Source of the DNA: Candidatus Collierbacteria bacterium
GTDB taxonomy: Bacteria > Patescibacteriota > Microgenomatia > UBA1400 > JACPES01
Length of the DNA stretch: 64,000 nt
NCBI GenBank assembly: GCA_016183365.1
Contig: JACPES010000005.1
Coordinates: 5,895 to 69,894, forward strand
Reading direction: 5' to 3'
This document shows, in pieces, positions 1,686-52,986 of this stretch; within the stretch, counting starts at the first letter, position 1, and every line of letters begins with the position of its first letter. The notes beneath the pieces were generated by a model. It ran no database searches. It was not told the origin of the DNA and saw only the letters and a list, made by a program, of their open reading frames with translations. Both the position numbers and the translations under genes were made by a program.

Positions 1686-2373
1686 TTTAATTATTTTACA
1701 CCAAATCCTTGTTTTAACCCTTTTATCCAGCCACGCATTTTTCTTAGTCGATCAAGGCTCTTACTAATGTGAATTCTGATTACTCCATAATATTCATTTC
1801 TATTTGAATATTGCTTTTTCCACTGACTGTTCTGAAAAAATGGCTTGGTAAACTGGTTATAAGGCATATCCAAATAGTTAGACCAAAACTCTTCAATTGT
1901 TTTAATTCTATCTTTGTGCGAAATATTCGCAGTAACTCTGAACCTCAAATCTCCAATTGTAATGCCTAAATATTGTTTTAACCAATTCAGTCTTTCGTTA
2001 ACTCATGATATAATAATTTTGTTCTTTAACGTGCGGGTGGGAGGTAAGTATCTCGTGAGGCTTAATTATATGGGTCTCAATAAACTTGGCTATATGCTGG
2101 AAGTCCCGACCCAAAGTCGGGATAATCAGCAGGAAAGATCCCGATTGAATCGGGGAATCCTCAGAGACTACACGCCGAGTCCCGATTTAATCGGGGAAGA
2201 TATAGTCCGACACTCTTAAGTAATGGGAGACAACAATGTGCATAATCTCACTTAATCGGGGAGCGTAACCCCGGACCCGCAACCAGATTTCGCCGGTGAA
2301 TCTTCTTACTGATTTCTTTTTAACGTCTTGAAGGATACAAGGACATGAAGGATATAAAGAGTATAATGCCCCC

Positions 2374-5707: not shown

Positions 5708-5751
5708 ATTACTAGTCGCGATTAATCCTCGGGGAAAGTGTGATTCTTTGT

Positions 5752-5822
5752 GGGCCCGGTAGGATTCGAACCTACGACGTTCGAGGTATAAGCTCGACGC
5801 TCTGCCGCTGAGCTACGGGCCC
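5752..5822 (-). tRNA. tRNA-Ile with UAU anticodon
   Basis: Reverse complement reads GGGCCCG-TA-GCTC-AGCGGCA-GAGC-G-TCGAG-CTTATAC-CTCGA-ACGTC-GTAGG-TTCGAAT-CCTAC-CGGGCCC-A. It is a perfect cloverleaf with anticodon loop C-U-UAU-A-C. Confidence 0.8.
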
Positions 5823-11297: not shown

Positions 11298-11825
11298 CTA
11301 TCGATGTCCCAGTGTGTAAAGTGTGTCTAAGTGATTAAATCCAATATTCTGCGGTAGTTTTTTGAAGAATTTAATCTCGGCTGTGTCATCGGCAGGCTTG
11401 GAAGGCCAGGCCTTTCCCGGAAAGGCCTGGCCTTTTTGATCTGGTTTGATGGTGCATCGATATACTAAGTCGACTACGTGACCGCGCGGATCACCGGTTA
11501 GATCGTCAAATGCTTCGGCCAACTTCACATTCTCAACTTTTATCCCCAATTCTTCCTTTGCCACCCGCTTAACGCAATTCATTAACGCTTCGCCTTTCAA
11601 AACAAAACTCCCCGGCAAATGCCAGTAGCCGGCAAACGGCAGCCTTTTGCGTTTGGTCAGCAATACTGCTTTGCTGTTAAGTTTCGCAAACTTCACATTA
11701 GCGGAAGTTTGCGAAACTTCTATATCTTGCTCAATCAGGAGATTCACGGCCACCCGCGGCGCGTATTTAAAACTTCTAAGAAACGTTTGAAAGGGAAGTT
11801 TCTTGGGATTCATATCAATAATCAA
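11298..11825 (-). CDS. NUDIX hydrolase
   Basis: Nudix box GEALMNCVKRVAKEELG (Gx5Ex7REUxEExGU). Carries two in-frame palindromic repeat insertions. Confidence 0.7.
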   Translation of the reverse strand: MIIDMNPKKLPFQTFLRSFKYAPRVAVNLLIEQDIEVSQTSANVKFAKLNSKAVLLTKRKRLPFAGYWHLPGSFVLKGEALMNCVKRVAKEELGIKVENVKLAEAFDDLTGDPRGHVVDLVYRCTIKPDQKGQAFPGKAWPSKPADDTAEIKFFKKLPQNIGFNHLDTLYTLGHR

Positions 11826-12459
11826 GACCCATAACGGCTTTACGGCCAGAATCGAACGGATGTTTGATATTTTTCATCTCCGTTACCAGTTCGGCCAAAT
11901 CAATCAACTGTTTCGGCGCGTTTCTGCCGGTCAAAATAATATGCGTCTGCCCGCGTTTAGAAATTAGATCAATTAAGTCAATCAGATCAATTAATTTATC
12001 ATTGACAGCGTTGATGGCTTCGTCGAGGATTAAAAGAAATAAATGGTTGGGATGGCTTAAATGGTTAAAAGATTTTGTAGCCCTTGTAGCCATTTTGATC
12101 ATTTTTCCGCTTAATAATTCTCTCGTTAATTCCAGCGCTTCTCCCGCCGCTTTCCGGTGTTCATTTGCGCTTGCATGATCCGTCGGCAATTTATAAAATC
12201 CCAGCCCCATTGGATAAATTTCAAAGCTCCCGATTTCCCTTCTTGTGCTTTTTTGTGCTTTTTTGTGCTTTTTTGTGCTTGCCAGCATTTCCGGCAAATT
12301 ATGCTCGCCGATCCTCCATCGTTTCTCCTTATACCATTGGATCATCGCCACCCGCTTCCCCTGCCCCACCGCTCTCATCGCCACCCCAAGCGCTGCACTC
12401 GTTTTCCCCTTTCCATTCCCAGTAAAAATATAAACCAATCCGATGGCATTATCTTTCAT
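11815..12459 (-). CDS. cobA: cob(I)yrinic acid a,c-diamide / cob(I)alamin adenosyltransferase (CobA/BtuR family)
   Basis: P-loop FTGNGKGKTSAALG and ILDE motif. Contains in-frame low-complexity insertions from tandem repeats (KKHKKAQKS, LIDLIDLIDLI, NHLSHPNH). Confidence 0.65.
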   Translation of the reverse strand: MKDNAIGLVYIFTGNGKGKTSAALGVAMRAVGQGKRVAMIQWYKEKRWRIGEHNLPEMLASTKKHKKAQKSTRREIGSFEIYPMGLGFYKLPTDHASANEHRKAAGEALELTRELLSGKMIKMATRATKSFNHLSHPNHLFLLILDEAINAVNDKLIDLIDLIDLISKRGQTHIILTGRNAPKQLIDLAELVTEMKNIKHPFDSGRKAVMGLDY

Positions 12460-12528: not shown

Positions 12529-13245
12529 TTATAACCACCCCCCTCCGATTATTAATCCTACAATATAGGCGGCCGCAGCCGCAGTCCCACCGATCAGTAG
12601 CATTTCAATCCCTGACTTGAACCAGTTTTTACCGGTAATCCAGGATCTGGCTGAGCCGACTGAAAATAAAGCCAGAGCCGTAGCCAATATGGCGGCGTAA
12701 AATTTATTAATTGAAAAGTTGAAAACATACGGAATTAATGGCAAAAATCCCGCTGCCACAAAAGCTATAAAGGTGGCAAAAGCGTGACTAATCGGAAAAG
12801 ATTTTTGGGCGGGGATAATTCCCAACTCCCAAACCATCATTTCGTCCACCCAAACCCGTTTTTTTGAAGTGATAATTTTTTCCCATTCGGAAATTCTATC
12901 CGCCGGAATTCCCCTTTTAACGGCTATATTTCTGATTTCCTCCCTCTCTTTTTCCGGAATCTCTCCAATCTCTTTTTCTTCTATCGTCAGGCTATTTTTT
13001 TCAAAATCCGCCTGGCTTTTCGAGCCTAAGTAACTGCCCAAGGCCATGGCTAATCCGTCAGCCAACATGTTGGCTAGCCCCAAAATAATTACTACCGATG
13101 ATCCCATCCCGGCTCCGGCCGCACCGGCTGCCACCGCGAAAGTCGTTATCAGTCCGTCGTTGGCGGAAAACACCACGTCCTTAATATAATTTCCGCCTCT
13201 GGTTATATGAAGCTCTCCCTCGGAATTCCGTTTTAAATTGATCAT
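12529..13245 (-). CDS. VIT1/CCC1 family iron/manganese transporter
   Basis: DVVFSANDGLITTFAVAAGAAGA motif and a C-terminal TM bundle typical of the VIT family. Confidence 0.65.
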   Translation of the reverse strand: MINLKRNSEGELHITRGGNYIKDVVFSANDGLITTFAVAAGAAGAGMGSSVVIILGLANMLADGLAMALGSYLGSKSQADFEKNSLTIEEKEIGEIPEKEREEIRNIAVKRGIPADRISEWEKIITSKKRVWVDEMMVWELGIIPAQKSFPISHAFATFIAFVAAGFLPLIPYVFNFSINKFYAAILATALALFSVGSARSWITGKNWFKSGIEMLLIGGTAAAAAYIVGLIIGGGWL

Positions 13246-13614: not shown

Positions 13615-16170
13615 TTATAACGAACATTTTGAGTATCCACAAGAGTAACAAGTGCTGCACCCACTCTCGGAAGTCATTGCCGCTCCGCATTCCGGACAAT
13701 GGCCGTCGGCCAAATCCTCGGTGATCCGCCGTCTTTCAACCTGATATGCCCTTTGGGACAACGGCGTAATCTTCATCTGACTTTGCATCAGGCGTTGAGA
13801 TTGTTGATTGTTTTTCTCATCTTTCACATCCGCGGCAGTTTTTAATATTTGATTTTCTCTTGATCCGTCGCGATAGACGGTGATGCCTTTGCATCCAAGT
13901 TTCCAAGCGAGTAAATAAGCTTTTTCTACGTCTTTGACTGTGGCGGCACGGGAAAAATTAATGGTCTTGCTGACAGCGTTGTCAGTATATTTTTGAAACG
14001 CGGCCTGCATTTTAACGTGCCAGTCGGGAGAGATTTGGCGGGCGGTGCGGAAGATAGAAGATAAAATAGTCGAATGGTTAAGAGTGTTAAGAGTGTTAGG
14101 ATTGTTATCTACCCGATAACCATCTTTACCATCTCCACCATCTTGCCATCTTTCTATCTCTTTCTTCGCTTTTTCATAATACTTATTCGTATACCTCAAC
14201 CCTTCTTTCTCCACCACGTTTTTTGTATATTCCAAAGCAAAGTATGGTTCTATCCCCGATGAACAACCGGCAATCATGGAGATCGTCCCTGTCGGGGCGA
14301 TAGTTGTTATCGCCACGTTACGCACTTTTCGTCTGCGGCCAAACGGATTCTTGACGCTATTGAAATACGACTGTTTCCAGAGGGGGAATTCCGCCTTTTC
14401 TTTGGATAACTTCTCGCTCTCGTCCCAACTGATTTGCTGAATAAATTTCATGATCGATTCAGCTAATTTTATTCCTTCATCGCTGTCATAGCTTACGCCT
14501 AATTTAACCAACATATCCGCCCAGCCCATCACCCCAAGACCAATCCGCCGGAGTTTATGTGCCATATCGGCAATCTGTGGAATGGGATAGGTTGAGGCAT
14601 CTATGCCGTCGTCAAGAAAGCGGACCGCGGTGCGGATAACCTCTTCAAGACGGGACCGGTTAATATTGTCCAGAACACTCTGAAAACTCTGAAAGCCAGA
14701 CTGTCGGATAATCGGAGAATCGGAATGCCAGATTTTCTGGCTTTCCGGACCCCCGAGTTTTCCGAGTTTTCCGGAATCTTCCCAGAATGGTTTAATCACA
14801 AACTTCGCCAGATTTATGCTACCAAGGTTGCAAACGTCAAAAGGAAACAGAGGCTGTTCACCACATACATTTGTCGCATCTATCCGCCATTTTTTGATTA
14901 GAGGGTTATATTTATTGATAGTATCCAGATAAATCATCCCCGGGTCTCCGGTTAAGTGGGCTAAATTGATCATCTCATTCCATAGCCTCCGGGCCGAAAT
15001 TTTTTGGACCGTTGAGTCGTCGCGAGGATTAACCAATCCCCAGTCGGAATTTTTTTCTACCGCACTCATGAATCTATCAAAAGCGCCGACAGAAATATTG
15101 AAATTGCTAATTTCTCCGTCAACGGATTTGGCGCGGATAAATTCAAAAATATCCGGATGGTCAACGTTTAGGATCCCCATATTGGCGCCGCGGTGTTCGC
15201 CGCCCTGCATCACAATTTGGGTTTCGGCGTCAAACGCTTTCATAAAATTAATCGGACCGGAAGATAAGCCTCCGGAACGGACCGTATCGCCGCGGGGACG
15301 CAAATGAGAAAAATTAAAACCGGTTCCGCCGCCCATTTGATGGATCAGCGCCGCCCATTTGACGGCGTCGAAAATCTTCTCGATTGAATCCTCAACCGGT
15401 AAAACAAAACAATTGGCCAAAGATCCGTTCTGCTTATTTCCTGCCCCCCGGAAATAACACCCGGCCGGAACAAATTCAAAAAAGGTCATAATTTCCAGGT
15501 ACTTGTCCCACCAGTTATGTCTGGAAAGGCCAGGCCTTTTCAAAAAAGGCCTGGCCTTTTTTGATATCTTTTGTTCTACTTCGGCTTTCTCTGTTACAAC
15601 CACAGCGTCTGCGACGCGCCTCATTGCCTCCATGGGTGTTTCGATCACATTCCCCTCTTTATCTTTCCACAAATATCGTTTGGCCATGGCGGCATAGGCG
15701 TTATCCGACATACCAAGGCGAGAAGTGTCTGATAATTGAGAAGTACCAGATACTTCTCGTTGGGCTGCGCGCCGGTTCCGATAAAGAATGTAGGCCTGGG
15801 CCGCATCTTGGTGTCCGGCGGCCAGCAACACCTGTTCGACGATATCCTGAATTTCCTCGACTGTCCACTGATTATGACCGTTGGAACGAATCAGGGTATC
15901 CTCGACGATTTTGGCGAAGCGCTCCGCCTCTTTCCACAACGAAGATTGTTTGTCGGCTTTTTGTCGGGGAACTTCAGTCTCGGCGGCCCGACGGGCAATT
16001 TCGTCAACTCCGGTGATTTGGGAGAATTTTTTTCTTACTTGGGAAACCGCCCACAGCGACTGCCAAGCTGCCATGGTAATTTTGCCGCGGTCGTACTTTT
16101 GTTTCCGGCCGTCGCGCTTGAGGATGGTGTAAATTGGCCTATTGGTTTCTCCGGGTTTTTTATTTGACAT
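13615..16170 (-). CDS. nrdJ: class II (adenosylcobalamin-dependent) ribonucleotide reductase with N-terminal ATP-cone
   Basis: ATP-cone start IYTILKRDGRKQKYDRGKI; RNR core motifs (SLANCFVLP, ATNVCGEQ); C-terminal zinc ribbon CPECGAAMTSESGCSTCYSCGYSKC. Confidence 0.85.
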   Translation of the reverse strand: MSNKKPGETNRPIYTILKRDGRKQKYDRGKITMAAWQSLWAVSQVRKKFSQITGVDEIARRAAETEVPRQKADKQSSLWKEAERFAKIVEDTLIRSNGHNQWTVEEIQDIVEQVLLAAGHQDAAQAYILYRNRRAAQREVSGTSQLSDTSRLGMSDNAYAAMAKRYLWKDKEGNVIETPMEAMRRVADAVVVTEKAEVEQKISKKARPFLKRPGLSRHNWWDKYLEIMTFFEFVPAGCYFRGAGNKQNGSLANCFVLPVEDSIEKIFDAVKWAALIHQMGGGTGFNFSHLRPRGDTVRSGGLSSGPINFMKAFDAETQIVMQGGEHRGANMGILNVDHPDIFEFIRAKSVDGEISNFNISVGAFDRFMSAVEKNSDWGLVNPRDDSTVQKISARRLWNEMINLAHLTGDPGMIYLDTINKYNPLIKKWRIDATNVCGEQPLFPFDVCNLGSINLAKFVIKPFWEDSGKLGKLGGPESQKIWHSDSPIIRQSGFQSFQSVLDNINRSRLEEVIRTAVRFLDDGIDASTYPIPQIADMAHKLRRIGLGVMGWADMLVKLGVSYDSDEGIKLAESIMKFIQQISWDESEKLSKEKAEFPLWKQSYFNSVKNPFGRRRKVRNVAITTIAPTGTISMIAGCSSGIEPYFALEYTKNVVEKEGLRYTNKYYEKAKKEIERWQDGGDGKDGYRVDNNPNTLNTLNHSTILSSIFRTARQISPDWHVKMQAAFQKYTDNAVSKTINFSRAATVKDVEKAYLLAWKLGCKGITVYRDGSRENQILKTAADVKDEKNNQQSQRLMQSQMKITPLSQRAYQVERRRITEDLADGHCPECGAAMTSESGCSTCYSCGYSKCSL
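14671..14790. repeat. ~120-bp palindromic TIR element, in-frame within nrdJ-A
   Basis: CAGAACACTCTGAAAACTC...TTTCCGAGTTTTCCGGAA; same family as the copies in nrdJ-B, nrdJ-C, the two PBP genes and the 60530..62266 membrane-protein gene. Confidence 0.75.
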
Positions 16171-16198
16171 TATCTAGATAGAGCATATAATAAATTTA

Positions 16199-16945
16199 TT
16201 AACTCGTTTGGGATGGACGCTTGCGTCGGTTCCGACGGGTTTTTTCTTGCCAAAATCTTGTCTTGATCTGTTTCCATTTGATCACTCTTTCGGAAACAAT
16301 TTTAGTTCTAATTATTTGATAGAAAACGTTATCCTTTCCTGTCTGCGCCCATAACACGCTCCCGGCCACCATATCAGCAACATTAACCAGCGGTTCCGTT
16401 TGACTATCAACATGAACCGGCGATAACGGCTCGTCCAATAGACTAGTTAATACTTGATTAAATTTGTCTTGATCTATGGTTCTTTGAAAATGGCGGTCGA
16501 GAACGACGTGTTTAATCTGATGTTGATAGTATAAAAGACAATCTTCAAGCAGCAACCAGCAAAGAAGGGCAAAATTCTCCGGAGAATCGGTTATGCTTTG
16601 ATTTTGTTTTTCAACGATTAAAACAAAAATCTCTACGTCTTGAGCAGCCAATTTTTCCAGAAATTTTTTCTTAGTTCTGTCGCCGGCTCGATAAAACTTG
16701 ATTTCCGGCGGATTACTCTTGGCGTAATGTTTCCTGATAATTTTAGTCATGGATTTAAGTCGCTGGGGTGTTTGAGTTGATATGGCAGCTACAACCACAG
16801 CCGGATCCCGGGGATCGGGTAAAGTCCCGGATTCATCCAGATAAACAGTTCTGCCTACTCGCCTGTATTCAACCGCGGTGGGAAGCCGAGGAAATTTCCG
16901 CCCGTCGCGCTTGAGGATGATGGAAATTAACTTTTGGGATTTCAT
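16199..16945 (-). CDS. DUF3800-like protein whose first ~20 codons duplicate the nrdJ ATP-cone start
   Basis: YLDESG motif near the N-terminus (DUF3800 hallmark, recalled from memory). The N-terminus ISIILKRDGRKF and ~35 bp of DNA are near-identical to the nrdJ-A 5' end. Confidence 0.4.
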   Translation of the reverse strand: MKSQKLISIILKRDGRKFPRLPTAVEYRRVGRTVYLDESGTLPDPRDPAVVVAAISTQTPQRLKSMTKIIRKHYAKSNPPEIKFYRAGDRTKKKFLEKLAAQDVEIFVLIVEKQNQSITDSPENFALLCWLLLEDCLLYYQHQIKHVVLDRHFQRTIDQDKFNQVLTSLLDEPLSPVHVDSQTEPLVNVADMVAGSVLWAQTGKDNVFYQIIRTKIVSERVIKWKQIKTRFWQEKTRRNRRKRPSQTS

Positions 16946-17238
16946 TTGGTATATTGATTTATATTATGCCAGCTGGAATTAATGGATCTGAAGAAGATCA
17001 GGGAATATCGCGTCAAGAAACAGACCAGCCCGAAACATCCGAATCGGCAAGAACGTCGTTCCTAACATACATGGCATTTGGGATGCTGGCAATAAATGGG
17101 GCAATTGAAGTCGCCAATGGAATAGCCATGGATGACGGATCGAAAATGTTCTACGGAGGTGTTGACATATTAATTGCTGCTTTGGCATATTTTGCTACTC
17201 CGCATAGATACCGACGTGTTTAGTAGGTGTATCTTTTT

Positions 17239-19302
17239 TTAGACGCTGCATTTTGACCAACCGCAGCTATGGCAAGTGACACAACCATTTTCGGCAATTA
17301 CCGCAGCTCCACACTCCGGACAGACGGCGGCGGGACCGGAGCCGGGACGCAAAGGCAAATGTTGAATGGCAGAATTTTCATTCGTCATTCGTAATTGGTC
17401 ATTCGTCATTGTATCCTTAGCAAGATTCAAAACCTGATCTTTTTTTGAGCCGTCTCTATAAATAGTAATCCCCTTGCAGCCGAGTTTCCAGGCCAGAATG
17501 TAGGCTTTTTCTACATCTTCAACAGTAGTATTATGGGGGAAGTTAATGGTTTTGCTGATTGAGTTATCAAAATGTTTCTGCCAGGCGGCCTGAATCTTAA
17601 CGTGCCACGATGGAGAAATCTCATGGGTGGTAACAAATATCTTATAAAACCAGCCGGGCAAACCTTCGATGGATTTTAATCCGTATTCCGCGACGTGTTT
17701 CAGAACACTCGGAAAACTCGGAGTTTCAGATAAATCAGAAAGTCGGAGAATCGGAAAATCAGAACTTCTGATCTTCTGATTTTCTGACTTTCTGACATTC
17801 CGGCTTTCCGAGTTTTCAGAGTTTTCCGAAATGACTCTCTTTAGTTCTTCTTCAAACACCGGATCGACCATATATATTTCCTTCGTCGGCCTATTTTTTC
17901 TATCGTCTTCAAAGAATGTTCGTCTTTTTGTGACCAACGAAAAAATCGGCTCTATCCCCGAAGTAGTGTCGGCGAGCATCGCCGTAGTCCCAGTGGGGGC
18001 AATCATGGTAGTAGCGCAGTTTCGCATCGGATGCTTGTCAAAATAAATACTCCTGTCCCAGTTGCCGAAGTTGCCGCGGACTTTGGCCAGTTTCATACTC
18101 TCATTTTGGGCAGTTTCCTGGATGAACTTTGCCAATTTTTCCGAAAGCTCCTCCGCTTGACTAGAGTTGTACGGAATACCTAATTTAACCAACATATGGG
18201 AAAATCCCATCACGCCTAATCCAATGCGGCGGTTGCCGTTTTTGACCATCTGCTCAATTTCGGGAATAGCATAGGTATTAACTTCAATCATGTCGTCGAG
18301 AAACCGGACCCCGAGACGGACGCTCTTTTCTAAGTCTTCCCAGTCAACTCCATTCATTGTTTCCTGTTTCTTGCTTCTTGCTTCTTTTATATGATTCTGC
18401 AAGCAAATACTTGTCAAATTGCAACTCTCGTAGGGCAAAAGTCCGATTTCGCCGCAGGGATTAGTCGCTTCTATCCGTCCAATTTGGGGAGTGGGGTTGT
18501 CGCGGTTAAAAGTATCCAAAAACATCAAACCCGGATCGCCGGTTTGATGGGCGTGGTCAACGATCATTTTGAATAATTTCCGGGCTTTTATCTTTCTCAC
18601 CGGCTCCCCGGTTCTGGGGTTAATTAAATTCCACATCTTATCCGCCTGAACCGCTTTCATAAATTCGTCGGTTACTCCAACGGAAATATTAAAGTTCTTG
18701 ATAGTGCCATCCTCGTCTTTAAGGCGAATAAAGTCTTCAATGTCGGGATGGTCGGCGTTTAAAATCCCGATGTTGGCGCCTTGGCGTTTGGCGCCCTGAA
18801 GAATTTTTGACAGGGCGGCGGAATAGGCGGCCAGAAAGTCCACCGGACCGGAGGCGGCGTTGGGGACATTTTTGACTTTGTCGCCGCGGGGACGGATGCG
18901 GGAAAAATTAAAGCCGGTGCCGCCGTTATTTTTATGGACGACGGCAGCGTCACCCAAGGTTTTGAAAATCGACTGAATGTTGTCTTCGACCGGAAGAACG
19001 AAACAGCTGCTCAATTGGCCGGTGCCGCCGGGGTTACCGGCCTCAAACATGGCCTTGCCGGCGCATACGAATTTGAAATTCACCATCCGGTCGTAAAAGG
19101 CGACGGCAATCTCGGCAACTTTCCCGTTTCCGCCATTCCAATTGACTTCGGCTTTAGCCATATGTCTGGCGACCCGCCACAGCATCTCTCCCGGAGTTTC
19201 GATGACTTTTCCGGACATATCGGTGCGGAGATAACGCTTCTGGGAAATCTTTATGGCAGTTGGTGATAGTTTTGGTTCGATGATAGTCATATGTATAGAC
19301 AA
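17239..19302 (-). CDS. nrdJ: class II ribonucleotide reductase paralog (no ATP-cone)
   Basis: SSCFVLP, ATNPCGEIGL, C-terminal CPECGAAVIAENGCVTCHSCGWSKC. Carries a ~135-bp in-frame palindromic element. Confidence 0.85.
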   Translation of the reverse strand: MSIHMTIIEPKLSPTAIKISQKRYLRTDMSGKVIETPGEMLWRVARHMAKAEVNWNGGNGKVAEIAVAFYDRMVNFKFVCAGKAMFEAGNPGGTGQLSSCFVLPVEDNIQSIFKTLGDAAVVHKNNGGTGFNFSRIRPRGDKVKNVPNAASGPVDFLAAYSAALSKILQGAKRQGANIGILNADHPDIEDFIRLKDEDGTIKNFNISVGVTDEFMKAVQADKMWNLINPRTGEPVRKIKARKLFKMIVDHAHQTGDPGLMFLDTFNRDNPTPQIGRIEATNPCGEIGLLPYESCNLTSICLQNHIKEARSKKQETMNGVDWEDLEKSVRLGVRFLDDMIEVNTYAIPEIEQMVKNGNRRIGLGVMGFSHMLVKLGIPYNSSQAEELSEKLAKFIQETAQNESMKLAKVRGNFGNWDRSIYFDKHPMRNCATTMIAPTGTTAMLADTTSGIEPIFSLVTKRRTFFEDDRKNRPTKEIYMVDPVFEEELKRVISENSENSESRNVRKSENQKIRSSDFPILRLSDLSETPSFPSVLKHVAEYGLKSIEGLPGWFYKIFVTTHEISPSWHVKIQAAWQKHFDNSISKTINFPHNTTVEDVEKAYILAWKLGCKGITIYRDGSKKDQVLNLAKDTMTNDQLRMTNENSAIQHLPLRPGSGPAAVCPECGAAVIAENGCVTCHSCGWSKCSV
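17701..17835. repeat. ~135-bp palindromic TIR element, in-frame within nrdJ-B
   Basis: CAGAACACTCGGAAAACTCGGAG...TTTCCGAGTTTTCAGAGTTTTCCGAA; translated as ENSENSESRNVRKSENQKIRSSDFPILRLSDLSETPSFPSVL. Confidence 0.8.
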
Positions 19303-19332
19303 ATTTTAAATTGTAAATTAACTCTCTTGTCC

Positions 19333-21405
19333 TCATACCGAGCATTTACTCCATCCGCATTCCTGACAAGTTGCGCATCCATCCATCAACGTCAGTTCTC
19401 CCCTGCATTCCGGACACACTTCGTCAGGATTTCCTTTAACCGTTAACCTTTGACCTTTGACCTTCCCCACATTGAGCACTTGCTCTCTCCGGCAGCCGTC
19501 GCGATAAACCGTAATTCCTTTACATCCGGTTTCGAAAGCTAATAAATAAGCGTTTTTAATATCGTCGACTGTGGCCGAATTGGGCAAATTAATAGTTTTT
19601 GATACCGCCGCATCTGTATATTTTTGCCATGCGGCTTGCATTTTAATATGCCATCTGTAGGGAATTTCCATGGAGACACGGAAGATATCTCTTACTTCTT
19701 GCGGAATTTCTTTAATATTTTGGCAACTGCCGGACACAGAGACTCTCTCCAGAACACTCGGAAAACTTGGAACATCAGATAAATCAGAAGATCGGAGTTT
19801 CAGAGAACCAGAATTTCTGGTCGTCTGATTGTCTGATTTTCTGATTTTCCGGCTTTCAGAGTTTTCAGAGTTTTCTGAAATTACACCAACTGCTTTTGAA
19901 AATTCTTCGTTAACTTCTAGCAAACTCGTCTTCCCCAAATCTAAAATATTTTCCCTTCTGTACGCCAAGGCAAACAACGGTTCTATTCCACTGGAACAAC
20001 CGGCGATTATGGAAATAGTCCCGGTCGGGGCGACGGTGTTGACCGTTGAATTACGCATATGAGTGAAACCTTGCTTCTGCCAAACGCTATCTTCGAAAGC
20101 CGGGAAAGAACCACGACTTCTAGCCAGTTCCACCGAGGCGTCGCGGGCAGTATCATGGATAAATTTAGCGGTTTTTTTCGCTAGTTTCAACGCCGCTTCC
20201 GAGTCGTAACGAACCCCCAGTTTAATCAACATGTCCGCCCAGCCCATGACGCCGACGCCGATTTTTCTGGTGGTCAGGGCCATTTTTTTTAATTGGGGAA
20301 TCGGATAGTCGCAGAGGTCGATAACGTTGTCCTGAAAGTGAACCCCGAGACGGACGACCTCTTCTAATCGTTTCCAGTTGATTCTTTCCAGAACACTCGG
20401 AAAACTCTGAGAACCAGAGAAATCGGAATATCGGAGGATCGGAGAATCAGACGATCCGGCCTTCTGACTTTCTGATTTTCTGATATTCCGGCTTTCCGAG
20501 TATTCCGAGTTTTCTGAACTTACAAATCTTCCCAGGTTTATATTCCCCAAGTTGCATGACTCATACGGTAATAGGGCTTGTTCGCCACACGGGTTAGTTG
20601 CTTGATATATCCCTAATTTTGGCGTCGGACAATATTTATTCATGACATCTAAAAACACTAATCCCGGGTCGCCGACTTTCCAGGCCTGGGTGGCGATTAA
20701 ATTCCATAACTCCATCACGTCGATATCTTTTTCGGTGGCGCCGTCGTTGGGGTGAAATAAATGAATAGTCCCCTTTTTGGCTTTGACCTTTTCCATAAAT
20801 TCGTCTGTAGCCCCGACGCTGACGTTAAAATGGTAGAGCGTGGACGGATCTTCTTTGGACATAATAAATTCAACGATGTCCGGGTGATCAACCTTCAATA
20901 CTCCCATCAGGGCGGGGCGGCGGGCGCTGGCCTCGGCGATGGTGGCGGCGGAATAATTAAATAACCGCAGGAAAGAAACGGCGCCGGAACTGATGCCGCC
21001 GGTTGATTCCACCAAAGAACCCCGCGGCCTAAGATTTGTCAGCGGGATTCCAATCCCGCCGCCGGTCCGTAAAATCAGGGCCGCGTTGCGCAGTTGATCA
21101 TAAATATCTTCCAAGGAATCGGATAAAGGCAAAACATAGCAAGCCGAAAATTGTTTATGCTTGCGGCCGGCGTTAAGGAGGACCGAGCCGGAAAGATATT
21201 CCAAATTCGACATGGCCCGATAAAAATCATCGGCGACTTTTTTTATCTCCTGATCCGCTTTATCTCCCTTTACTCTTAGATATTTTTTGTCAGCCGACGC
21301 GATTAAGTTAGCTACCCGTCGGAACATCTGATCAGGGATTTCTTTTGGCAAAAGATAGCCGCGTTTTTTCAAAACTACCAAAGCGTTATCGGATAAATTT
21401 GTCAT
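19333..21405 (-). CDS. nrdJ: class II ribonucleotide reductase paralog (no ATP-cone)
   Basis: SACYVLP, ATNPCGEQAL, C-terminal CPECRGELTLMDGCATCQECGWSKC. Carries two in-frame palindromic elements. Confidence 0.85.
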   Translation of the reverse strand: MTNLSDNALVVLKKRGYLLPKEIPDQMFRRVANLIASADKKYLRVKGDKADQEIKKVADDFYRAMSNLEYLSGSVLLNAGRKHKQFSACYVLPLSDSLEDIYDQLRNAALILRTGGGIGIPLTNLRPRGSLVESTGGISSGAVSFLRLFNYSAATIAEASARRPALMGVLKVDHPDIVEFIMSKEDPSTLYHFNVSVGATDEFMEKVKAKKGTIHLFHPNDGATEKDIDVMELWNLIATQAWKVGDPGLVFLDVMNKYCPTPKLGIYQATNPCGEQALLPYESCNLGNINLGRFVSSENSEYSESRNIRKSESQKAGSSDSPILRYSDFSGSQSFPSVLERINWKRLEEVVRLGVHFQDNVIDLCDYPIPQLKKMALTTRKIGVGVMGWADMLIKLGVRYDSEAALKLAKKTAKFIHDTARDASVELARSRGSFPAFEDSVWQKQGFTHMRNSTVNTVAPTGTISIIAGCSSGIEPLFALAYRRENILDLGKTSLLEVNEEFSKAVGVISENSENSESRKIRKSDNQTTRNSGSLKLRSSDLSDVPSFPSVLERVSVSGSCQNIKEIPQEVRDIFRVSMEIPYRWHIKMQAAWQKYTDAAVSKTINLPNSATVDDIKNAYLLAFETGCKGITVYRDGCRREQVLNVGKVKGQRLTVKGNPDEVCPECRGELTLMDGCATCQECGWSKCSV
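19751..19880. repeat. palindromic TIR element copy 1 in nrdJ-C
   Basis: CCAGAACACTCGGAAAACTTGG...TTTCAGAGTTTTCAGAGTTTTCTGAA. Confidence 0.8.
20391..20520. repeat. palindromic TIR element copy 2 in nrdJ-C
   Basis: CCAGAACACTCGGAAAACTCTGAG...TTTCCGAGTATTCCGAGTTTTCTGAA. Confidence 0.8.
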
Positions 21406-21414
21406 ATTTTCTGT

Positions 21415-21545
21415 TATCGGATTTCAGTTTTCTGTTTTCGGTTTTCTGTTTTCAGGTTGACCGGTTTTCTGTTTGCCAGTTCGAAACCGATAAACTGAAG
21501 ACTGACTAACTGCAAACTGATAGCTGACAACCGAGAACTGATAAC
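21415..21545. repeat. degenerate intergenic copy of the same palindromic element (5' leader of nrdJ-C)
   Basis: tcagttttctgttttcggttttctgttttcagg ... gaaaccgataaactgaagactga. It has GTTTTCTG / CAGAAAAC-type dyad symmetry. Confidence 0.5.
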
Positions 21546-21744
21546 CGTATCCGCCCCGCCTAAATTCTTTAGCTTTTGGCGGGGCGGTCTGTTGACCTCA
21601 CCGGTATTCCGACTTTAAGAAATCACCACTGAACCGTCAACTACCAATATCCGTATCAGAGTCAATCACCACTTCCGTTTGAACCAGATTGCCGCAAAAA
21701 CTGCCAATAATAAATAAATCTATATATTAAGTTGAACAATTAAA

Positions 21745-22015
21745 CTAAAGCTGTGCTGCTATATCAATGATTTTAATTAGTACGGACGGATCTGACGGCA
21801 AACAGGCAGGATTCTCCGACGTGTGAAGTTTACGAAACTTCACAATTGCTAATTTCTTGTCCGCAACCTTTCTGACTAATTTTTCATCGGCAGAAACCAA
21901 TATGGCTTTAGCGGCTTTGGCCAAAGTCTGGCGGGAACTATCGTATGCCGACAACTGATATTTTTGGACTAAAGTCAAACATGTTTTATGTTCGTCGGCT
22001 ATCGAGCAGAAAATC
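21745..22015 (-). pseudogene. truncated PIN-domain (VapC) paralog fragment carrying a hairpin-repeat insertion
   Basis: Protein and DNA (aaagtcaaacat..ttcgtcggctatcga) are similar to the C-terminal third of the intact VapC at 23398..23832. It lacks the N-terminal catalytic region and contains a GTGAAGTTTACGAAACTTCAC insert. Confidence 0.45.
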
Positions 22016-22267
22016 TGAACTGTCTCGCGAGGCGATGATTAATTTATGGGAGGTTTATACAACAGGTCTGAAAATTTTCTCCACTCGTCAGGCGATCTTC
22101 TATTTATTTCAGCAGCCAGCATATATAAATTTGTATCCCCTTCGAAAGTTCTTTGGATACGGATATATTTTTCATCCAAAGTTTGTTTTAAGGCCATAAA
22201 ATACGGATTTCCGGATTGAGGGAAAAAGATAAAAACCGGAGGAGAATTTTTTAGCACAGACTCAAAT

Positions 22268-23152
22268 TCATTCCTTAAAATAGGAGACCGGGGGTAGAAC
22301 ATGAAAGGCGGTATAAAACCCGATGTTTAAAGTAGTTATCCGCAAATTCAGAAAAATCAGCAGAAAATAAAATAGGAGAAAAATTACCCCGGTCCGGATT
22401 TTCCTTTGTGATTTGAACAAAATGATTGCGGCGCTGATTATAACCGGGATTAATAATAATAAATAGTAACGGGCAATAACTTGATTTAAGCCTTGCAGAC
22501 TTAAAAATGGATAAATTAAAAAAGAAAAGTAGCTTTGGGCGGTTAATGTTGCTTCATAAGGCAAAAAATACTTGAGATTATTAACCACGGCTTCCTGAAA
22601 CCAACTGAAGAAATTTACTGTGGTAAATAAGATGATGGTTGGAATAAAAAAAGACGACAACACGTCTAAGACCGAAGCTTGTTTTAACATTTTGTATCTT
22701 AAATAGATAAATAAGACTGCGGAAAATAAAAGGAAGGGCCAAGCAGGCAAAAGATTGAAAGCAACCCAAAATATGCAAAATCCGAAAGTATATCCGTCCA
22801 GTCTTAGCCATTTGTTATTTATATTTAAAAAGGCGTATTCTCCTAAAACCCCAGCTAAAAACATTAACGGATAAACGACCAAAGATTCCGCTAAAAGATG
22901 GTAGCCGAAAAGATAGAATTTAATTATTTCAGTAAAAACTGAAGCGATAAAACCTTTCGCGCCAAATCTGACAGTTAAAAGAAAAGCCCCAATAAATGAT
23001 AAAAATAGCATGAATTGGCGGACTCTCTCTATTAGCATAAACAGATTTGTAAATTTAATAATTTTCCAAAAGGCGAATGCCGTAATAATTGGCAGGGGCT
23101 GATGATTGGTGGATAGATCCTGATAAAGAGATTTGTGTTTTTCCGCCATCAT
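22268..23152 (-). CDS. polytopic membrane protein, function unknown
   Basis: At least eight predicted TM helices. A 264-nt ORF (22039..22302) overlaps its 3' end in another frame and may be a frameshifted tail. Confidence 0.45.
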   Translation of the reverse strand: MMAEKHKSLYQDLSTNHQPLPIITAFAFWKIIKFTNLFMLIERVRQFMLFLSFIGAFLLTVRFGAKGFIASVFTEIIKFYLFGYHLLAESLVVYPLMFLAGVLGEYAFLNINNKWLRLDGYTFGFCIFWVAFNLLPAWPFLLFSAVLFIYLRYKMLKQASVLDVLSSFFIPTIILFTTVNFFSWFQEAVVNNLKYFLPYEATLTAQSYFSFLIYPFLSLQGLNQVIARYYLLLLIPVIISAAIILFKSQRKIRTGVIFLLFYFLLIFLNLRITTLNIGFYTAFHVLPPVSYFKE

Positions 23153-23397: not shown

Positions 23398-23832
23398 TCA
23401 TTCCGTGGACGCGGCGTATTCTTTCAGCCCAATGACCAATCTTGTATCGGCCACTTTTCTAACAAGTTTGGCATCGGCGGAGACCAATGCGGTATTGGCG
23501 GCTTTGGCTAAAGTAAGATAAGAGCCGTCGTATCCCGACAGCTGATATTTTTTGGCTAAAGTCAAACATAATTTATATTCGTCGGCTATCGATAGAAGCT
23601 GTGGTTTTGATTTAAGAAAAAATTTCAGGAATTTCAACGAATTGGAAAAAGTTATTTTATCCCTAGCGACAGCCGTCACTAAAGCATTGACAATTTCGTA
23701 CTCCCATAACAAAGGCGCTAGCAGCGTAACTTTTTTTTCCTCACTGGCTTTAAGAATGGATAGAGCCGCGGACGAGTCCTCTTCGGCAAACAGCCATTTC
23801 AAACAAACCGAGGCGTCAATAACGATATTCAT
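23398..23832 (-). CDS. vapC: PIN-domain ribonuclease toxin VapC
   Basis: MNIVIDASVCLKWL N-terminal PIN acidic motif; 144 aa; immediately downstream of a small RHH-like ORF. Confidence 0.75.
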   Translation of the reverse strand: MNIVIDASVCLKWLFAEEDSSAALSILKASEEKKVTLLAPLLWEYEIVNALVTAVARDKITFSNSLKFLKFFLKSKPQLLSIADEYKLCLTLAKKYQLSGYDGSYLTLAKAANTALVSADAKLVRKVADTRLVIGLKEYAASTE

Positions 23833-24071
23833 TAAATTTTACGGCCAGCCGCTATCAGCTGGGAAACGGGAATATCTATTTTTACCGACATGTTTCCGGC
23901 TTGTTTAGCCAAGCTTAATTGAGACCGAACGGAGATGGTTTTAAGTTTACGATAGGCTCCGGCGGCTTCGCGGATTAAAGCGGCGGTGCTTTTACCTTCG
24001 GAAAGGGCCAATAGCCGCAACGCCAGGTAATCTTCTTTGGGGAAACGAATATTCGTAGCTATTGTTTGCAT
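23832..24071 (-). CDS. vapB: ribbon-helix-helix (CopG/VapB-like) antitoxin
   Basis: 79 aa, IRFPKEDYLALRLLALSEGKSTAALIREAA RHH-like; shares a start/stop junction with vapC. Confidence 0.55.
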   Translation of the reverse strand: MQTIATNIRFPKEDYLALRLLALSEGKSTAALIREAAGAYRKLKTISVRSQLSLAKQAGNMSVKIDIPVSQLIAAGRKI

Positions 24072-24117
24072 AATGATGCTATGGTACTATGGTATGAATT
24101 TATTGTCAAGACCTAGG

Positions 24118-25251
24118 TTAACACGGCCTGATTTGACGGCATCCCGGACAGGTTTCTCCGATCGCGCAAGAAACTGTTTTCTTACAGTTCGGACAGTGAA
24201 CTCGATTGTTTTCTATTCCTAAAACCGGAACTGCTGAAAAAGTTGCCCCGCCAAATCTCGACGGCATTAAACTCCCGATGCAACCCGCAGCCGCTGTCAT
24301 AAAGGCGGCCAGAAAATTTTCTGTTGGAATCCGGCTTAATTTCTCTCTAGCAATCTCCGGAATTTTCTCTTTACCAATTAACTCCAAAACCGATTCAATA
24401 AATCCAAACACCGTTTGGGCCATTCCAATTTGCATTTTTTCGATTTCCCCTTCAGCCGAATTAACTACTTCCGCAATTTTCTTTCCGCCGTCTTTTACAA
24501 CCTGCCGGATTGCCTGCCATATTTCCCCAGAGCCGGCGCCATATAATTTTCCGATTGACACGCCTTCAATCGTCCGGCCAGGACCAAAAACAGTATTACA
24601 TGCCGCGATTAAATCCTTATGGTCGGCCTGAAATACCATTCCGGATAAAATTCTTGGACTAATCTCCGGCGGAACATTCAAGCCTGTTAAATTAGCAATC
24701 AGGCTCCTTAACTCTGGCAATGAAAAATCACTCATATACGAAGAAACGGATAATTTCCGGCTGCCGGAATTGTCTCGGCCGATAGTCCCGATGTTTATAT
24801 ACGCGTGCCGACTGCTGAATCCTTCTTTGGGGCTGGCCCATAAAATATTTTCTCCGTCTTCTTTAGATTTATTTTCATCAGCTAATATTCCGGCCACTTT
24901 TTCTAAGACTAAAAACGCTCCCGCTCCCCGTTCCGGTTCATTTTTGTCAACTCTCGATCTGGCATCGGTAAAATTTCTATTATGGAGATCTTCGCTGGCA
25001 ACGAGTTTTCCGCCGGTTAAATGATAAGAAAAATGATCCGGGGCGTATTGAAGTCTGGTTAAAAGCTCGCGGGGAAATTGAGGTAAAAGCTGTTTGACTA
25101 CTTCCGGTCCTTGCTCGCGGATAAAGTATCTCAAATCCGCAGCTAAACTTTTAATATCAAACCCTTTTGGAGATTCGTAGAATCGAAGATTGAGTGCCGG
25201 ACCTAAAATTTCTGCCATAAGTTTTTGCCCCTGCGGCGGAGGCGGTTTCAA
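24118..25251 (-). CDS. hypothetical protein with C-terminal 4-Cys zinc ribbon
   Basis: 377 aa with no motif I recognise; the C-terminus CPNCKKTVSCAIGETCPGCRQIRPC is a zinc-ribbon signature. It sits in a TA-rich island. Confidence 0.5.
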   Translation of the reverse strand: MKPPPPQGQKLMAEILGPALNLRFYESPKGFDIKSLAADLRYFIREQGPEVVKQLLPQFPRELLTRLQYAPDHFSYHLTGGKLVASEDLHNRNFTDARSRVDKNEPERGAGAFLVLEKVAGILADENKSKEDGENILWASPKEGFSSRHAYINIGTIGRDNSGSRKLSVSSYMSDFSLPELRSLIANLTGLNVPPEISPRILSGMVFQADHKDLIAACNTVFGPGRTIEGVSIGKLYGAGSGEIWQAIRQVVKDGGKKIAEVVNSAEGEIEKMQIGMAQTVFGFIESVLELIGKEKIPEIAREKLSRIPTENFLAAFMTAAAGCIGSLMPSRFGGATFSAVPVLGIENNRVHCPNCKKTVSCAIGETCPGCRQIRPC

Positions 25252-25416
25252 CTTTTTTTGATTTCAGGAGCAAGTTCCCGACTTTCCCGACCCAAGGTCA
25301 AGGATTCACGGTTGCGGCACAGTCCCCGATTTCCACGAGGTTCCTCTGTCTCCCGAAACGGAAAATGTCAACAACAGATTAATAGCATGAAGGAGAATAA
25401 TTAACAAGAGTCTAAT

Positions 25417-25692
25417 TCAGGAGCGGCGATAGACTTGGTCGTGGGTGCCGAGATCGAAAAAATAGAATATTTCATCTTCCAAGATAGCGTATAACATCCG
25501 AACACTGCCGGTGATACTAATGCTCCAAACCTGCTGTTGGCTACCGACGAGTTGATGATTTCTAAGCGAAGGATAATGAGGATTCTGTTGGAAAAGAGCG
25601 AGCTGTTTTTCGATTTTCGCCGACAAACTTTTATCTCTGCGTTTAAGCGACCGGAACCGTTTTAATAAATCTGGAGAAATCTGAATTTCCAT
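25417..25692 (-). CDS. RelE/ParE-family toxin
   Basis: 91 aa; WSISITGSVRMLYAIL...FFDLGTHDQVY matches the RelE/YafQ pattern. Confidence 0.55.
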   Translation of the reverse strand: MEIQISPDLLKRFRSLKRRDKSLSAKIEKQLALFQQNPHYPSLRNHQLVGSQQQVWSISITGSVRMLYAILEDEIFYFFDLGTHDQVYRRS

Positions 25693-25700
25693 TGATTTGA

Positions 25701-25955
25701 TTAAAGGGTTTCGAAAAATTTAGAGACATCATCAACGGCAACCGCCTTATGTCTGTCTTTTAACGCTTTTTTAAGTATTTTCTTGGTTCTATCCGACATT
25801 TCAAACACCGGAAAATCCATCGGGGAGACGTCTTTGATAACTAAATGGCGGACATATCCGGAAATAGGCAGGTCATATTTGGCGGCTTTACTGGCCAAAA
25901 ACTCCCATAGAGCCACCGGCAGATTGACTTTGATTTGAGTCTGCGGAGTAATCAT
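25701..25955 (-). CDS. putative antitoxin of RelE/ParE pair
   Basis: 84-aa ORF directly upstream and co-oriented with the toxin. Confidence 0.45.
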   Translation of the reverse strand: MITPQTQIKVNLPVALWEFLASKAAKYDLPISGYVRHLVIKDVSPMDFPVFEMSDRTKKILKKALKDRHKAVAVDDVSKFFETL

Positions 25956-52515: not shown

Positions 52516-52911
52516 TTATATTGCTACATTGCGAATCGCTTTTTGCAAAGCAACAAGCGGTAGGATAGCACATTTAATTCTAGCATGAGAGATGTCGCCG
52601 CCAAGCAACTCGACCATGCCAGCTTGACTTATTTGACTAATTTGGCTAATGCGCCGAATTTGCTTGACCCTTTCCGACAGGAGCGACGCTCCGGCAGTGC
52701 TTATGGCGCACCCTACTCCTCTCCAGGCAATTTCGCCAATCTCTGTTCTCTGTTCTCTGTTCGCTGATCTCTTTACTCTAACCTGAAACTCAATCAAGTC
52801 TCCGCAGCTGGCGTTGGCTTCTTGGACGACAGCATCGGGATTTTTTAACTCACCGAAGTTGCGGGGGTGTTGATAGTGGTCGATGATGAGATCGTGATAG
52901 ATGTTGGACAT
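52516..52911 (-). CDS. sufU: SUF-system NifU/IscU-like scaffold (SufU)
   Basis: NASCGD and GCAIS cysteine motifs. Has an in-frame ISQISQISQ insert from a tandem 9-mer. Confidence 0.75.
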   Translation of the reverse strand: MSNIYHDLIIDHYQHPRNFGELKNPDAVVQEANASCGDLIEFQVRVKRSANREQRTEIGEIAWRGVGCAISTAGASLLSERVKQIRRISQISQISQAGMVELLGGDISHARIKCAILPLVALQKAIRNVAI

Positions 52912-52986
52912 TGTTAGATTGTTAGATTGTTAGATTGTTTTTGTTAACAATCCAGCAATTTAGCAATGTAGCAATTTTACTCGACA

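Follow-up and report, generated by a model that had tools for sequence, protein, structure and literature searches.

Class II ribonucleotide reductases (RNRs), the products of nrdJ genes, were sorted by Schell et al. 2021 (PMC8365446) according to a short apical loop whose sequence is P-N-S-P in enzymes acting on ribonucleoside diphosphates (NDP) and P-A-G-R in those acting on triphosphates (NTP), the two motifs jointly covering more than 97% of NrdJs. NTP-type loops follow the pattern P-[ASG]-G-R, with PSMR and PQGSP as further variants, and several nrdJ genes were found in 1108 of 24,059 GTDB genomes, 69% of these multi-nrdJ genomes mixing predicted NDP and NTP types (PMC8365446). The NrdJd of S. 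nassauensis ends in a cysteine-rich electron-relay/zinc domain (CRD) whose six cysteines (C920, C923, C933, C936, C939 and C945) are spaced C-x2-C-x9-C-x2-C-x2-C-x5-C (PMC5704485). Here we describe three nrdJ genes, nrdJ-A, nrdJ-B and nrdJ-C, found in a 64,000 nucleotide stretch of a Candidatus Collierbacteria bacterium genome (assembly GCA_016183365.1, contig JACPES010000005.1, positions 5,895 to 69,894; this whole stretch is termed the window, and coordinates are counted from its first letter). On sequence comparison, the locus represents, in Collierbacteria, a gene cluster that is conserved throughout the Microgenomates (Patescibacteria, or Candidate Phyla Radiation (CPR)). We favour, with moderate confidence, the reading that the three genes encode non-redundant, catalytically competent isozymes that would share the supply of deoxyribonucleotides (dNTPs). 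The genes and the motifs used for their assignment are the following:

19333..21405, minus strand: nrdJ-C, 690 aa, first gene of the array, class II RNR without ATP-cone
17239..19290, minus strand: nrdJ-B, 683 aa from the ATG at 19290, the open reading frame (ORF) being open back to a TTG at 19302
13615..16170, minus strand: nrdJ-A, 851 aa, the sole paralog of the three with an N-terminal ATP-cone
15766..16128, minus strand: ATP-cone of nrdJ-A, aa 15-135 (PF03477, 55.8 bits for a cut-off of 25.8, E = 7e-15)
A 15397-15414, B 18991-19008, C 21127-21144, minus strand: first redox Cys, equivalent of T. maritima C134
14830..14871, minus strand: active-site motif N-V-C-G-E...C of A, with the thiyl-radical Cys, Asn, Glu and the second redox Cys
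B 18421-18462, C 20554-20595, minus strand: equivalents of this active-site motif
A 13624..13698, B 17248-17322, C 19342-19416, minus strand: six-cysteine C-terminal domain (CRD), its spacing compared with that of the S. nassauensis CRD

The evidence supports the assignment of the three paralogs as intact class II NrdJ genes of the dimeric type. Pfam searches identified Ribonuc_red_lgN and Ribonuc_red_lgC (the all-alpha and barrel domains) in A, B and C, and their scores against NCBIfam TIGR02504 (NrdJ_Z) are 650.5, 629.5 and 607.7 bits, respectively, for a curated cut-off of 399.95 bits. The alignment of nrdJ-B with the T. maritima NrdJ has an E-value of 3e-99. The AlphaFold2 model of nrdJ-C (pLDDT 84.5, pTM 0.84) finds its best PDB match in the same enzyme (1XJE; E = 8e-49, TM 0.83); as modelled, C has the ten-stranded alpha/beta barrel fold of the solved NrdJ, and this fold is predicted for A and B as well. 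The redox Cys pair (equivalents of T. maritima C134/C333) and the thiyl-radical Cys, Asn and Glu are kept in A, B and C and in the four clades A-D defined below. A first-pass annotation of the window had read an NxCGE radical motif in each copy: it is NVCGE in A and NPCGE in B and C, and both redox cysteines are also there. The loss of catalytic cysteines in two copies, which that annotation had proposed as the mark of pseudogenised duplicates, is seen in no clade. Its C-terminal Cys4 zinc ribbon needs amendment: the C-terminus is indeed cysteine-rich, yet what all three paralogs carry is a six-cysteine CRD (C-x2-C-x9-C-x2-C-x2-C-x4-C) and not a plain Cys4 site. The attribution of an ATP-cone to A alone was borne out, as PF03477 scores above the cut-off in A and the Pfam search found no ATP-cone in B or C. 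The cone of A has an insertion of ~35 aa relative to the Pfam model that is common to the Collierbacteria relative L017. The three ORFs are uninterrupted, inserted elements (see below) included. Binding of adenosylcobalamin (AdoCbl) and AdoCbl-dependent radical generation by A, B and C are supported indirectly, by homology to the T. maritima NrdJ and by linkage to the corrinoid adenosyltransferase gene cobA.

The three ORFs lie on the minus strand where they had first been called, with 851, 687 and 690 aa. In the case of nrdJ-B the ORF holds but not its start: the initiation codon is most likely the ATG at 19290, matching the calls on other contigs and in orthologs, so that 683 aa is preferred to 687. 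The exact nrdJ-C protein and the order C-B-DUF3800-A (a DUF3800 ORF separates B from A) are present on contigs of several independent sequencing runs; this order, assembled independently, is therefore no assembly artefact.

The A, B and C proteins are ~45% identical to one another. A scan with B, using one genome per GTDB species, returned 13 loci, all from Patescibacteria (Collierbacteria, Beckwithbacteria, Woesebacteria and Microgenomates group). Wherever a related contig extends far enough, the order is constant: three nrdJ genes lie side by side, the first-position gene being followed by the B ortholog and then by an A ortholog with an ATP-cone. The triple-nrdJ array is therefore the norm of this lineage and no oddity. 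Three NrdJ copies had initially been considered unusual; they are standard here, and genomes with multiple nrdJ genes had already been described (PMC8365446). The usual layout in relatives is nrdR-nrdJ-nrdJ-nrdJ...cobA with near-zero gene spacing (-10 to +11 nt). On a 777-kb contig, for instance, it reads nrdR - nrdJ (C type) - nrdJ (B type, with an intein) - nrdJ (A type, with ATP-cone) ... Maf - cobA, the genes overlapping or lying 1-8 nt apart. The cobA gene is found downstream of the array in seven loci (L007, L012, L013, L014, L016, L017 and L018), and the order B-then-A is invariant across the loci examined. A Chisholmbacteria-like contig displays a variant array with two ATP-cone copies and interspersed NUDIX/MazG genes. 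Relatives repeatedly have NUDIX, MazG and Maf genes close to the array; its conserved neighbours (nrdR, NUDIX, MazG, Maf, cytidylate kinase and nucleoside diphosphate kinase (NDK)) place it in a nucleotide-pool island. This fixed, coupled three-gene nrdJ array across Microgenomates appears to be new.

Several CPR lineages contain orthologs of each paralog; those from other genera are 55-77% (B), 45-66% (A) and 47-82% (C) identical to the window genes. In a neighbour-joining tree of 86 sequences and 597 columns, four clades are found: A (bootstrap 100), B (96), C (51) and D (100), the latter being a divergent type that occupies the first array position in Woesebacteria-like genomes. Identity is 40-46% between clades and 63-72% within clades, and each clade is nearer to NrdJ representatives outside the four clades than to the other clades. 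The first-pass annotation had proposed a phylogeny to separate ancient paralogy from recent duplication: on this tree, where only clade C has a low bootstrap, the three paralogs are anciently diverged and not recent duplicates.

Two further observations were made outside the window. LAGLIDADG-type inteins split nrdJ orthologs exactly between NP and CGE of the radical motif (L014 8078-11179, L017 481-3705, L141 10904-13828 and many others); no intein was found in the three window nrdJ genes. The L140 contig (positions 5397-12668; Logan SRR22387926) carries the genes nrdR - nrdJ (720 aa, with a TSCPD domain and no CRD) - fused nrdJ-nrdJ (1351 aa) - cobA, with a dCMP deaminase gene upstream and two NDK genes downstream. 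The single nrdJ of this cluster has a C-like loop 2 (VNEASMRRGALMGVM).

The three window proteins differ at the phosphate-binding apical loop and at specificity loop 2:

21181-21192, minus strand: apical loop of C, S-G-S-V, aa 72-75, non-canonical
19054-19065, minus strand: apical loop of B, C-A-G-K
15457-15468, minus strand: apical loop of A, P-A-G-C
20902-20940, minus strand: loop 2 of C, IAEASARRPALMG, aa 156-168, divergent
18766-18804, minus strand: loop 2 of B, ILQGAKRQGANIG
15175-15213, minus strand: loop 2 of A, VMQGGEHRGANMG

The apical loop is P-N-S-P or P-N-T-P in 45 of the 51 NrdJ representatives beyond the four clades. It reads P-A-G-[C/G/R/T] in clade A (PAGR in three orthologs), C-A-G-K, C-S-G-K or P-G-G-K in clade B, and P-N-G-R in clade D. 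Clade C has PNSP in Beckwithbacteria-type genomes and S-G-S-V, together with a one-residue deletion, in Collierbacteria, the window included. The NDP-type motif P-N-S-P is thus absent from all three window genes (S-G-S-V in C; A and B without the motif), while the NTP-like Gly is present in the loops of A and B, with Arg replaced by Cys (A) or Lys (B). As these motifs lie beyond the PNSP and PAGR types of more than 97% of NrdJs, any NDP or NTP assignment of the window genes is an extrapolation. Loop 2 relays the identity of the effector to the active site, as known from T. maritima and E. coli structures. Its sequence is [IV]KQGG[TR]RRGANMGIL in the outside sequences, VMQGGxx[RM]GANMGIL in clade A, ILQG[AS]KRQGANI in clade B, I[ASN]E[AG]SxRR[PV]A[LM]M in clade C and IGQGGGRRSA[CA]M in clade D.

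Clade-conserved replacements, counted at residues otherwise at least 80% conserved, affect 21 of 50 conserved columns in B residues 79-178 compared to 11 of 145 elsewhere (Fisher, odds ratio 8.8, p = 1.5e-7; this p-value is optimistic because the region was picked after seeing the data). Within this region lie the apical loop, the surroundings of the first Cys, helix A / loop 1 / helix B, and loop 2. The C-type motifs of Collierbacteria are invariant among orthologs 63-81% identical, pointing therefore to purifying selection rather than decay. Taken at the level of sequence, the clade-specific changes at apical loop and loop 2 argue for a division of labour among the three enzymes. The early suggestion that the paralogs differ in allosteric regulation was correct for the ATP-cone contrast but too narrow, since apical loop and specificity loop 2 also differ by clade. 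These non-canonical apical-loop and loop-2 variants appear to be new.

Part of the length differences between the paralogs is due to in-frame palindromic insertions. The main family, named type-1 element, is an imperfect palindrome of 110-145 nt built from TCNGAAAA/TTTTCNGA octamers and is found in-frame in A and B (one copy each) and in C (two copies). Its copies in the window, and a second palindrome in nrdJ-A, are listed here:

14671..14781, minus strand: type-1 element in nrdJ-A, loop position 1, aa 464-500; hairpin z = -5.2; absent from the closest ortholog (L017)
17692..17836, minus strand: type-1 element in nrdJ-B, loop position 2, aa 491-534; hairpin z = -8.6
19741..19885, minus strand: type-1 element in nrdJ-C, loop position 2, aa 509-552; low pLDDT at aa 530-543
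20380..20524, minus strand: type-1 element in nrdJ-C, loop position 1, aa 296-339; low pLDDT at aa 317-334
35530-35652 (ORF 33830-36355) and 39053-39135 (ORF 37293-39665): type-1 elements in a homologous loop of two PBP1A (transglycosylase/transpeptidase) paralogs, the second degraded
60871-60992 (ORF 60530-62266): type-1 element in a 578-aa multi-pass membrane protein; the frame changes inside the element and the ORF stays open
15523..15561, minus strand: second palindrome (AAAGGCCAGGCCTTTT / AAAAGGCCTGGCCTTT) in nrdJ-A, encoding KKARPFLKRPGLS; z = -6.4

The seven type-1 elements of the 64 kb (hosts: NrdJ four times, PBP1A twice, and once the membrane protein, which has no Pfam match) yield 14 arm matches versus 0 expected in 100 shuffles, and all host ORFs are open through the element. 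Long hairpins are predicted for the six full-length copies (z = -4.6 to -8.6), and the degraded seventh, in the second PBP1A, has z = -3.6. In the model of nrdJ-C the two inserts are the only low-confidence regions inside the barrel. The two NrdJ insertion loops lie after NLGxxNLxxFV and before the last barrel helices. In Collierbacteria C orthologs that are 72-81% identical, both loops are either empty or occupied by a different insert; the loop-position-2 element of nrdJ-C is found in some Collierbacteria orthologs and missing from others, and its loop-position-1 site holds other inserts or none. Considering the Collierbacteria C and A orthologs together, both loops show no insert, the same element or unrelated inserts, and several unrelated palindrome families struck them in different genomes. 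These loops, variably occupied across genomes, are therefore permissive hot-spots. The element arms form inverted repeats by construction; no target-site duplication is recognisable at the ends of the four NrdJ copies. The PBP1A and NrdJ paralogs alike carry the type-1 element at homologous positions, which raises site preference, gene conversion or a small number of permissive loops as explanations.

The type-1 element is absent from relatives L007-L019. A profile search with the element peptide gave 21 candidates with one 41-aa match, indicating that the element in this frame is rare in public data, and it yielded no list of host genes. A metagenome-wide DNA pattern scan for the element arm returned mostly chance single matches, properly paired arms being found in three contigs only (L072, L077 and L127); these paired elements look intergenic and the family is therefore not confined to genes. 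The second palindrome family (AAGGCCAGGCCTT arms) accounts for a 14-aa insertion in nrdJ-A (15525-15559) that is absent from the closest ortholog (L017), and occurs also in the NUDIX ORF (11402-11434) and in a PfkB-family kinase ORF (41925-41979). Further hairpins made of tandem heptamers and their complements are found at 44493-44574, in a transketolase-like ORF, and at 52908-52969, between NifU-like and cysteine-desulfurase-like ORFs. Several families of palindromic repeats seem to abound in this genome. The "MTNDQLRMTN" segment in the linker of NrdJ-B was also considered as a palindrome and rejected, having no significant hairpin (z = -0.5).

Rickettsia palindromic elements (RPEs) are multi-copy sequences of ~110-150 nt inserted in-frame in unrelated, often essential genes, according to the summary of Ogata et al. 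2000 in PMC10969869. We consider it reasonably probable that RPE-like palindromic elements exist in CPR genomes and repeatedly settle in the same permissive loops of essential enzymes. Such colonisation of nrdJ genes appears, from our analysis, to be new, and no report of in-frame palindromic elements or of miniature inverted-repeat transposable elements in CPR bacteria was found in the literature searched. It would mean that Rickettsia-like selfish DNA also shapes essential CPR proteins. The elements inflate and confound paralog comparison and gene annotation in such genomes.

The remaining features of the locus are the genes that follow or interrupt the array and the leader of its first gene:

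16954..17223, plus strand: 89-aa ORF between nrdJ-B and the DUF3800 ORF
16199..16945, minus strand: DUF3800 ORF between nrdJ-B and nrdJ-A
16199..17223, both strands: DUF3800 cassette (DUF3800 ORF and 89-aa ORF), inserted between nrdJ-B and nrdJ-A
12529..13245, minus strand: VIT1-family transporter gene (Pfam) between nrdJ-A and cobA
11815..12459, minus strand: cobA/btuR-type ATP:corrinoid adenosyltransferase gene (Pfam PF02572, E = 6e-46)
11298..11825, minus strand: NUDIX hydrolase gene (Pfam), overlapping the end of cobA
21407..21545, minus strand: heptamer-built palindromic hairpin in the nrdJ-C 5' leader, directly abutting the start codon

Reading along the minus strand from 21.4 to 11.3 kb, the order is thus nrdJ-C, nrdJ-B, (the 89-aa plus-strand ORF), DUF3800, nrdJ-A, VIT1, cobA and NUDIX. 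The three nrdJ genes had been described as tandem and co-oriented with cobA just downstream. Co-orientation holds, but the tandem is not strict, as the DUF3800 ORF and the small opposite-strand ORF split B from A; likewise cobA is at 11815-12459 but does not directly adjoin nrdJ-A, the VIT1 gene lying in between. A VIT1-family gene is found in the Collierbacteria relative L017 as well. The proposed link of cobA to AdoCbl supply is strengthened by the relatives, in which a downstream cobA is conserved synteny that fits this role. CobA scores 157 bits with Pfam PF02572 (cut-off 25.7) and 133.7 bits with NCBIfam TIGR00708, under the cut-off of 167.75. Compared to the Pfam model it has ~36 additional residues in inserted segments, and it contains a "DLIDLIDLI" tandem repeat; these features may explain why it falls under the NCBIfam equivalog cut-off.

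In 10 of 13 relatives, and also in L140-L142, the array is directly preceded by the nrdR gene (zinc ribbon and ATP-cone). No nrdR gene is present anywhere in the 64-kb window, and no site there matched the NrdR-box consensus within 3 mismatches. On the side where relatives have nrdR there are small ORFs at 23398-25955 that are probably toxin-antitoxin modules; the same genes are present on contig L001, with weak YafQ-toxin and PIN-domain matches. In the nrdJ-C leader the heptamer palindrome is preceded by a GC-rich hairpin (~21555-21592). No riboswitch or known RNA was recognised upstream of nrdJ-C: Rfam searches (at the gathering threshold over the window, and at E <= 5 for 21300-22350) gave chance miRNA-like matches on the palindrome only. 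The first ~20 codons of the DUF3800 ORF (16895-16941) are an 81%-identical copy of the nrdJ-A 5' end (16102-16148), including the beginning of the ATP-cone ("ILKRDGRK"). The DUF3800 cassette is absent from the relatives examined, and PADLOC matches to defence systems were weak (E ~ 3e-4) and not accepted as evidence for such a role. Elsewhere in the window, a group I catalytic intron (2053-2228, plus strand; Rfam RF00028, 66 bits for a gathering score of 50) lies near a tRNA-Met gene (1611-1685), and ARAGORN predicts a tRNA-Ile with anticodon TAT at 5750-5822 (minus strand). The TAT anticodon is uncommon in bacteria, where AUA is usually read by a modified CAT anticodon.

If the three paralogs are separate isozymes, A, B and C would differ in substrate phosphate preference and in the regulation of specificity. 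The C type would descend from NDP-type (PNSP) enzymes and the A, B and D types would bear a Gly-containing, NTP-like apical loop, each paralog having a different specificity relay. On/off control by ATP/dATP would act on A only. CobA would adenosylate scavenged corrinoid, providing the AdoCbl cofactor for all three. Whatever the division of work, this genome shows an eroded form of the ancestral layout, with nrdR gone from the locus, a cassette between B and A, and palindromic elements in two permissive surface loops.

Several points count against this picture. PAGC, CAGK and SGSV are outside the experimentally characterised apical motifs; the region richest in replacements (B79-178) was delimited after inspection of the replacement list; and the tree is not a maximum likelihood one. 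Co-transcribed, coupled genes (-10 to +11 nt in relatives) are more typical of the subunits of one complex than of separate isozymes, and a natural NrdJ-NrdJ fusion exists within an analogous nrdR-nrdJ-[nrdJ-nrdJ]-cobA cluster. This coupling and this fusion make a serious rival of an obligate or preferential hetero-oligomer, for example heterodimers across the specificity-site helix bundle with the lone ATP-cone of A controlling assembly, an arrangement that we regard as possible but rather unlikely; just as tentatively, one complex would join protomers of different substrate or phosphate preference. In relatives a single nrdR precedes three genes that overlap or are spaced by -10 to +11 nt, which is the pattern of stoichiometric subunits; the invariant B-then-A order may be added to this. 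The alphaA / loop 1 / alphaB region, which forms the dimer interface in the T. maritima structure, contains many of the clade-specific replacements. In each of two database proteins, P0121 and P0122, two complete NrdJ barrels are fused, with two NxCGE motifs and a single C-terminal CRD, and P0122 is encoded in a cluster nrdR - nrdJ - [nrdJ-nrdJ] - cobA with a TAATG stop/start overlap; electron transfer between subunits by the CRD is reported to be possible (Loderer 2017, PMC5704485). However, each window paralog has its own full catalytic set and its own CRD, with no visible dependence on a partner, three paralogs cannot pair evenly, and a 1-kb cassette uncouples A from B in this genome. Both fusions are singletons, found in one assembly each; they are ~40% identical to the window paralogs and outside clades A-D, and the fusion may for this reason be an independent solution. 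That the Microgenomates paralogs form one hetero-oligomeric class II RNR, with NDP-like and NTP-like protomers bearing different specificity loops and one ATP-cone protomer in control, instead of being alternative isozymes, is a proposal that we regard as rather unlikely. The lead towards a heteromeric or fused NrdJ nonetheless appears to be new and, if true, heteromers would be an RNR quaternary architecture undescribed for any RNR class.

Selfish DNA offers another explanation, namely that spare copies guard an essential function against inteins and palindromic insertions. The NP|CGE motif is split by inteins in many orthologs, the three window genes contain four type-1 palindromic insertions and one AAGGCC palindrome, and the two insertion loops hold different inserts in different genomes; yet redundant copies are expected to drift or vanish, whereas each clade was long kept with its own signature at functional loops, and inteins and in-frame elements normally leave the host protein active. 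We find such insurance improbable. Catalytic death of one or two paralogs, as regulatory or scaffold pseudoenzymes or as decaying duplicates, is very improbable. C would be the prime candidate, as it is the most divergent from the family consensus (GG[IV]G[IV]PL[ST] in place of GGTGFxFS), its loop 2 carries Glu for Gln and Pro or Val for Gly, and its Collierbacteria apical loop has lost both prolines; A of the window and of L017 also has His at the loop-2 Arg of other NrdJs. Against this stand the redox cysteines, thiyl-radical Cys, Asn, Glu and six CRD cysteines kept in the window genes and in clades A, B and C, the uninterrupted ORFs with scores far above the curated NrdJ cut-off, and the conservation of the odd C motifs themselves among orthologs. 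That the genes were recently duplicated in tandem in this genome, and that two copies then lost the ATP-cone, might be suspected from the adjacent, co-oriented genes and from short DNA stretches 70-80% identical between copies, but the most similar inter-copy DNA is the inserted palindromic element and not the gene body. The merely ~45% identity of the paralog proteins, the phylogeny (clade bootstraps A 100, B 96, C 51) and the closer orthologs in other genera (B 55-77%, A 45-66%, C 47-82%) rule this scenario out for practical purposes.

The genomes of CPR bacteria are minimal, and de novo nucleotide synthesis is mostly missing from these organisms. That this lineage nonetheless keeps three large RNR genes in a fixed array is a strong statement on dNTP-pool balancing. 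The array supplies natural enzymes with PAGC, CAGK, PNGR and SGSV loops, which fall beyond the two types making up more than 97% of known NrdJs, and it brings together three distinct versions of loop 2 in a single cell. The question of Schell et al., why keep both NDP- and NTP-reducing NrdJs, becomes directly testable.

The literature searched offered nothing relevant on NrdJ in CPR/Patescibacteria or on NrdJ heterodimers, and Patescibacteria are mentioned neither in the text of Schell 2021 (PMC8365446) nor in one of its supplementary files. The closest match in sequence and fold is the T. maritima NrdJ (1XJE / 3O0N), with the same catalytic residues and the same domain order. That one, however, is a single enzyme with a canonical PNSP apical loop and a KQGSRRRGA loop 2, while the window proteins depart from it in their loops and contain a CRD, inserted repeat peptides and, in A only, an ATP-cone; as crystallised, the construct (644 residues) stops soon after the barrel, so its C-terminus gives no CRD comparison. 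For the CRD the S. nassauensis NrdJd (Loderer 2017, PMC5704485) is the better reference: its six-Cys C-terminus has nearly the same spacing, the last step being x5 there and x4 in the window. It differs in being one enzyme per genome studied, and the window CRD is known from its sequence. P. aeruginosa NrdJa/NrdJb (PMC4520616) are a multi-polypeptide NrdJ precedent in which adjacent genes jointly provide the class II RNR function, but there one enzyme is cut into complementary halves, whereas the window genes and the fused relatives encode complete barrels. As in NrdR-controlled nrd operons, relatives carry nrdR immediately upstream of the array, unlike the 64-kb window, which has neither nrdR nor an NrdR-box match. 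The type-1 element resembles the RPEs, as portrayed in PMC10969869, in being a short multi-copy palindrome inserted in-frame in loops with the host ORF kept open; it differs from that portrait in host phylum (CPR here) and in its TCNGAAAA/TTTTCNGA octamer build, the likeness being one of behaviour. The genomes of Schell 2021 (PMC8365446) share with this one the presence of several class II RNR genes, a PNSP-derived copy standing beside Gly-containing NTP-like copies. What sets the window lineage apart is the fixed, translationally coupled three-gene array with nrdR and cobA, and apical loops (PAGC, CAGK and SGSV in the window, PNGR in relatives) that lie outside the characterised PNSP, PAGR, PSMR and PQGSP motifs.

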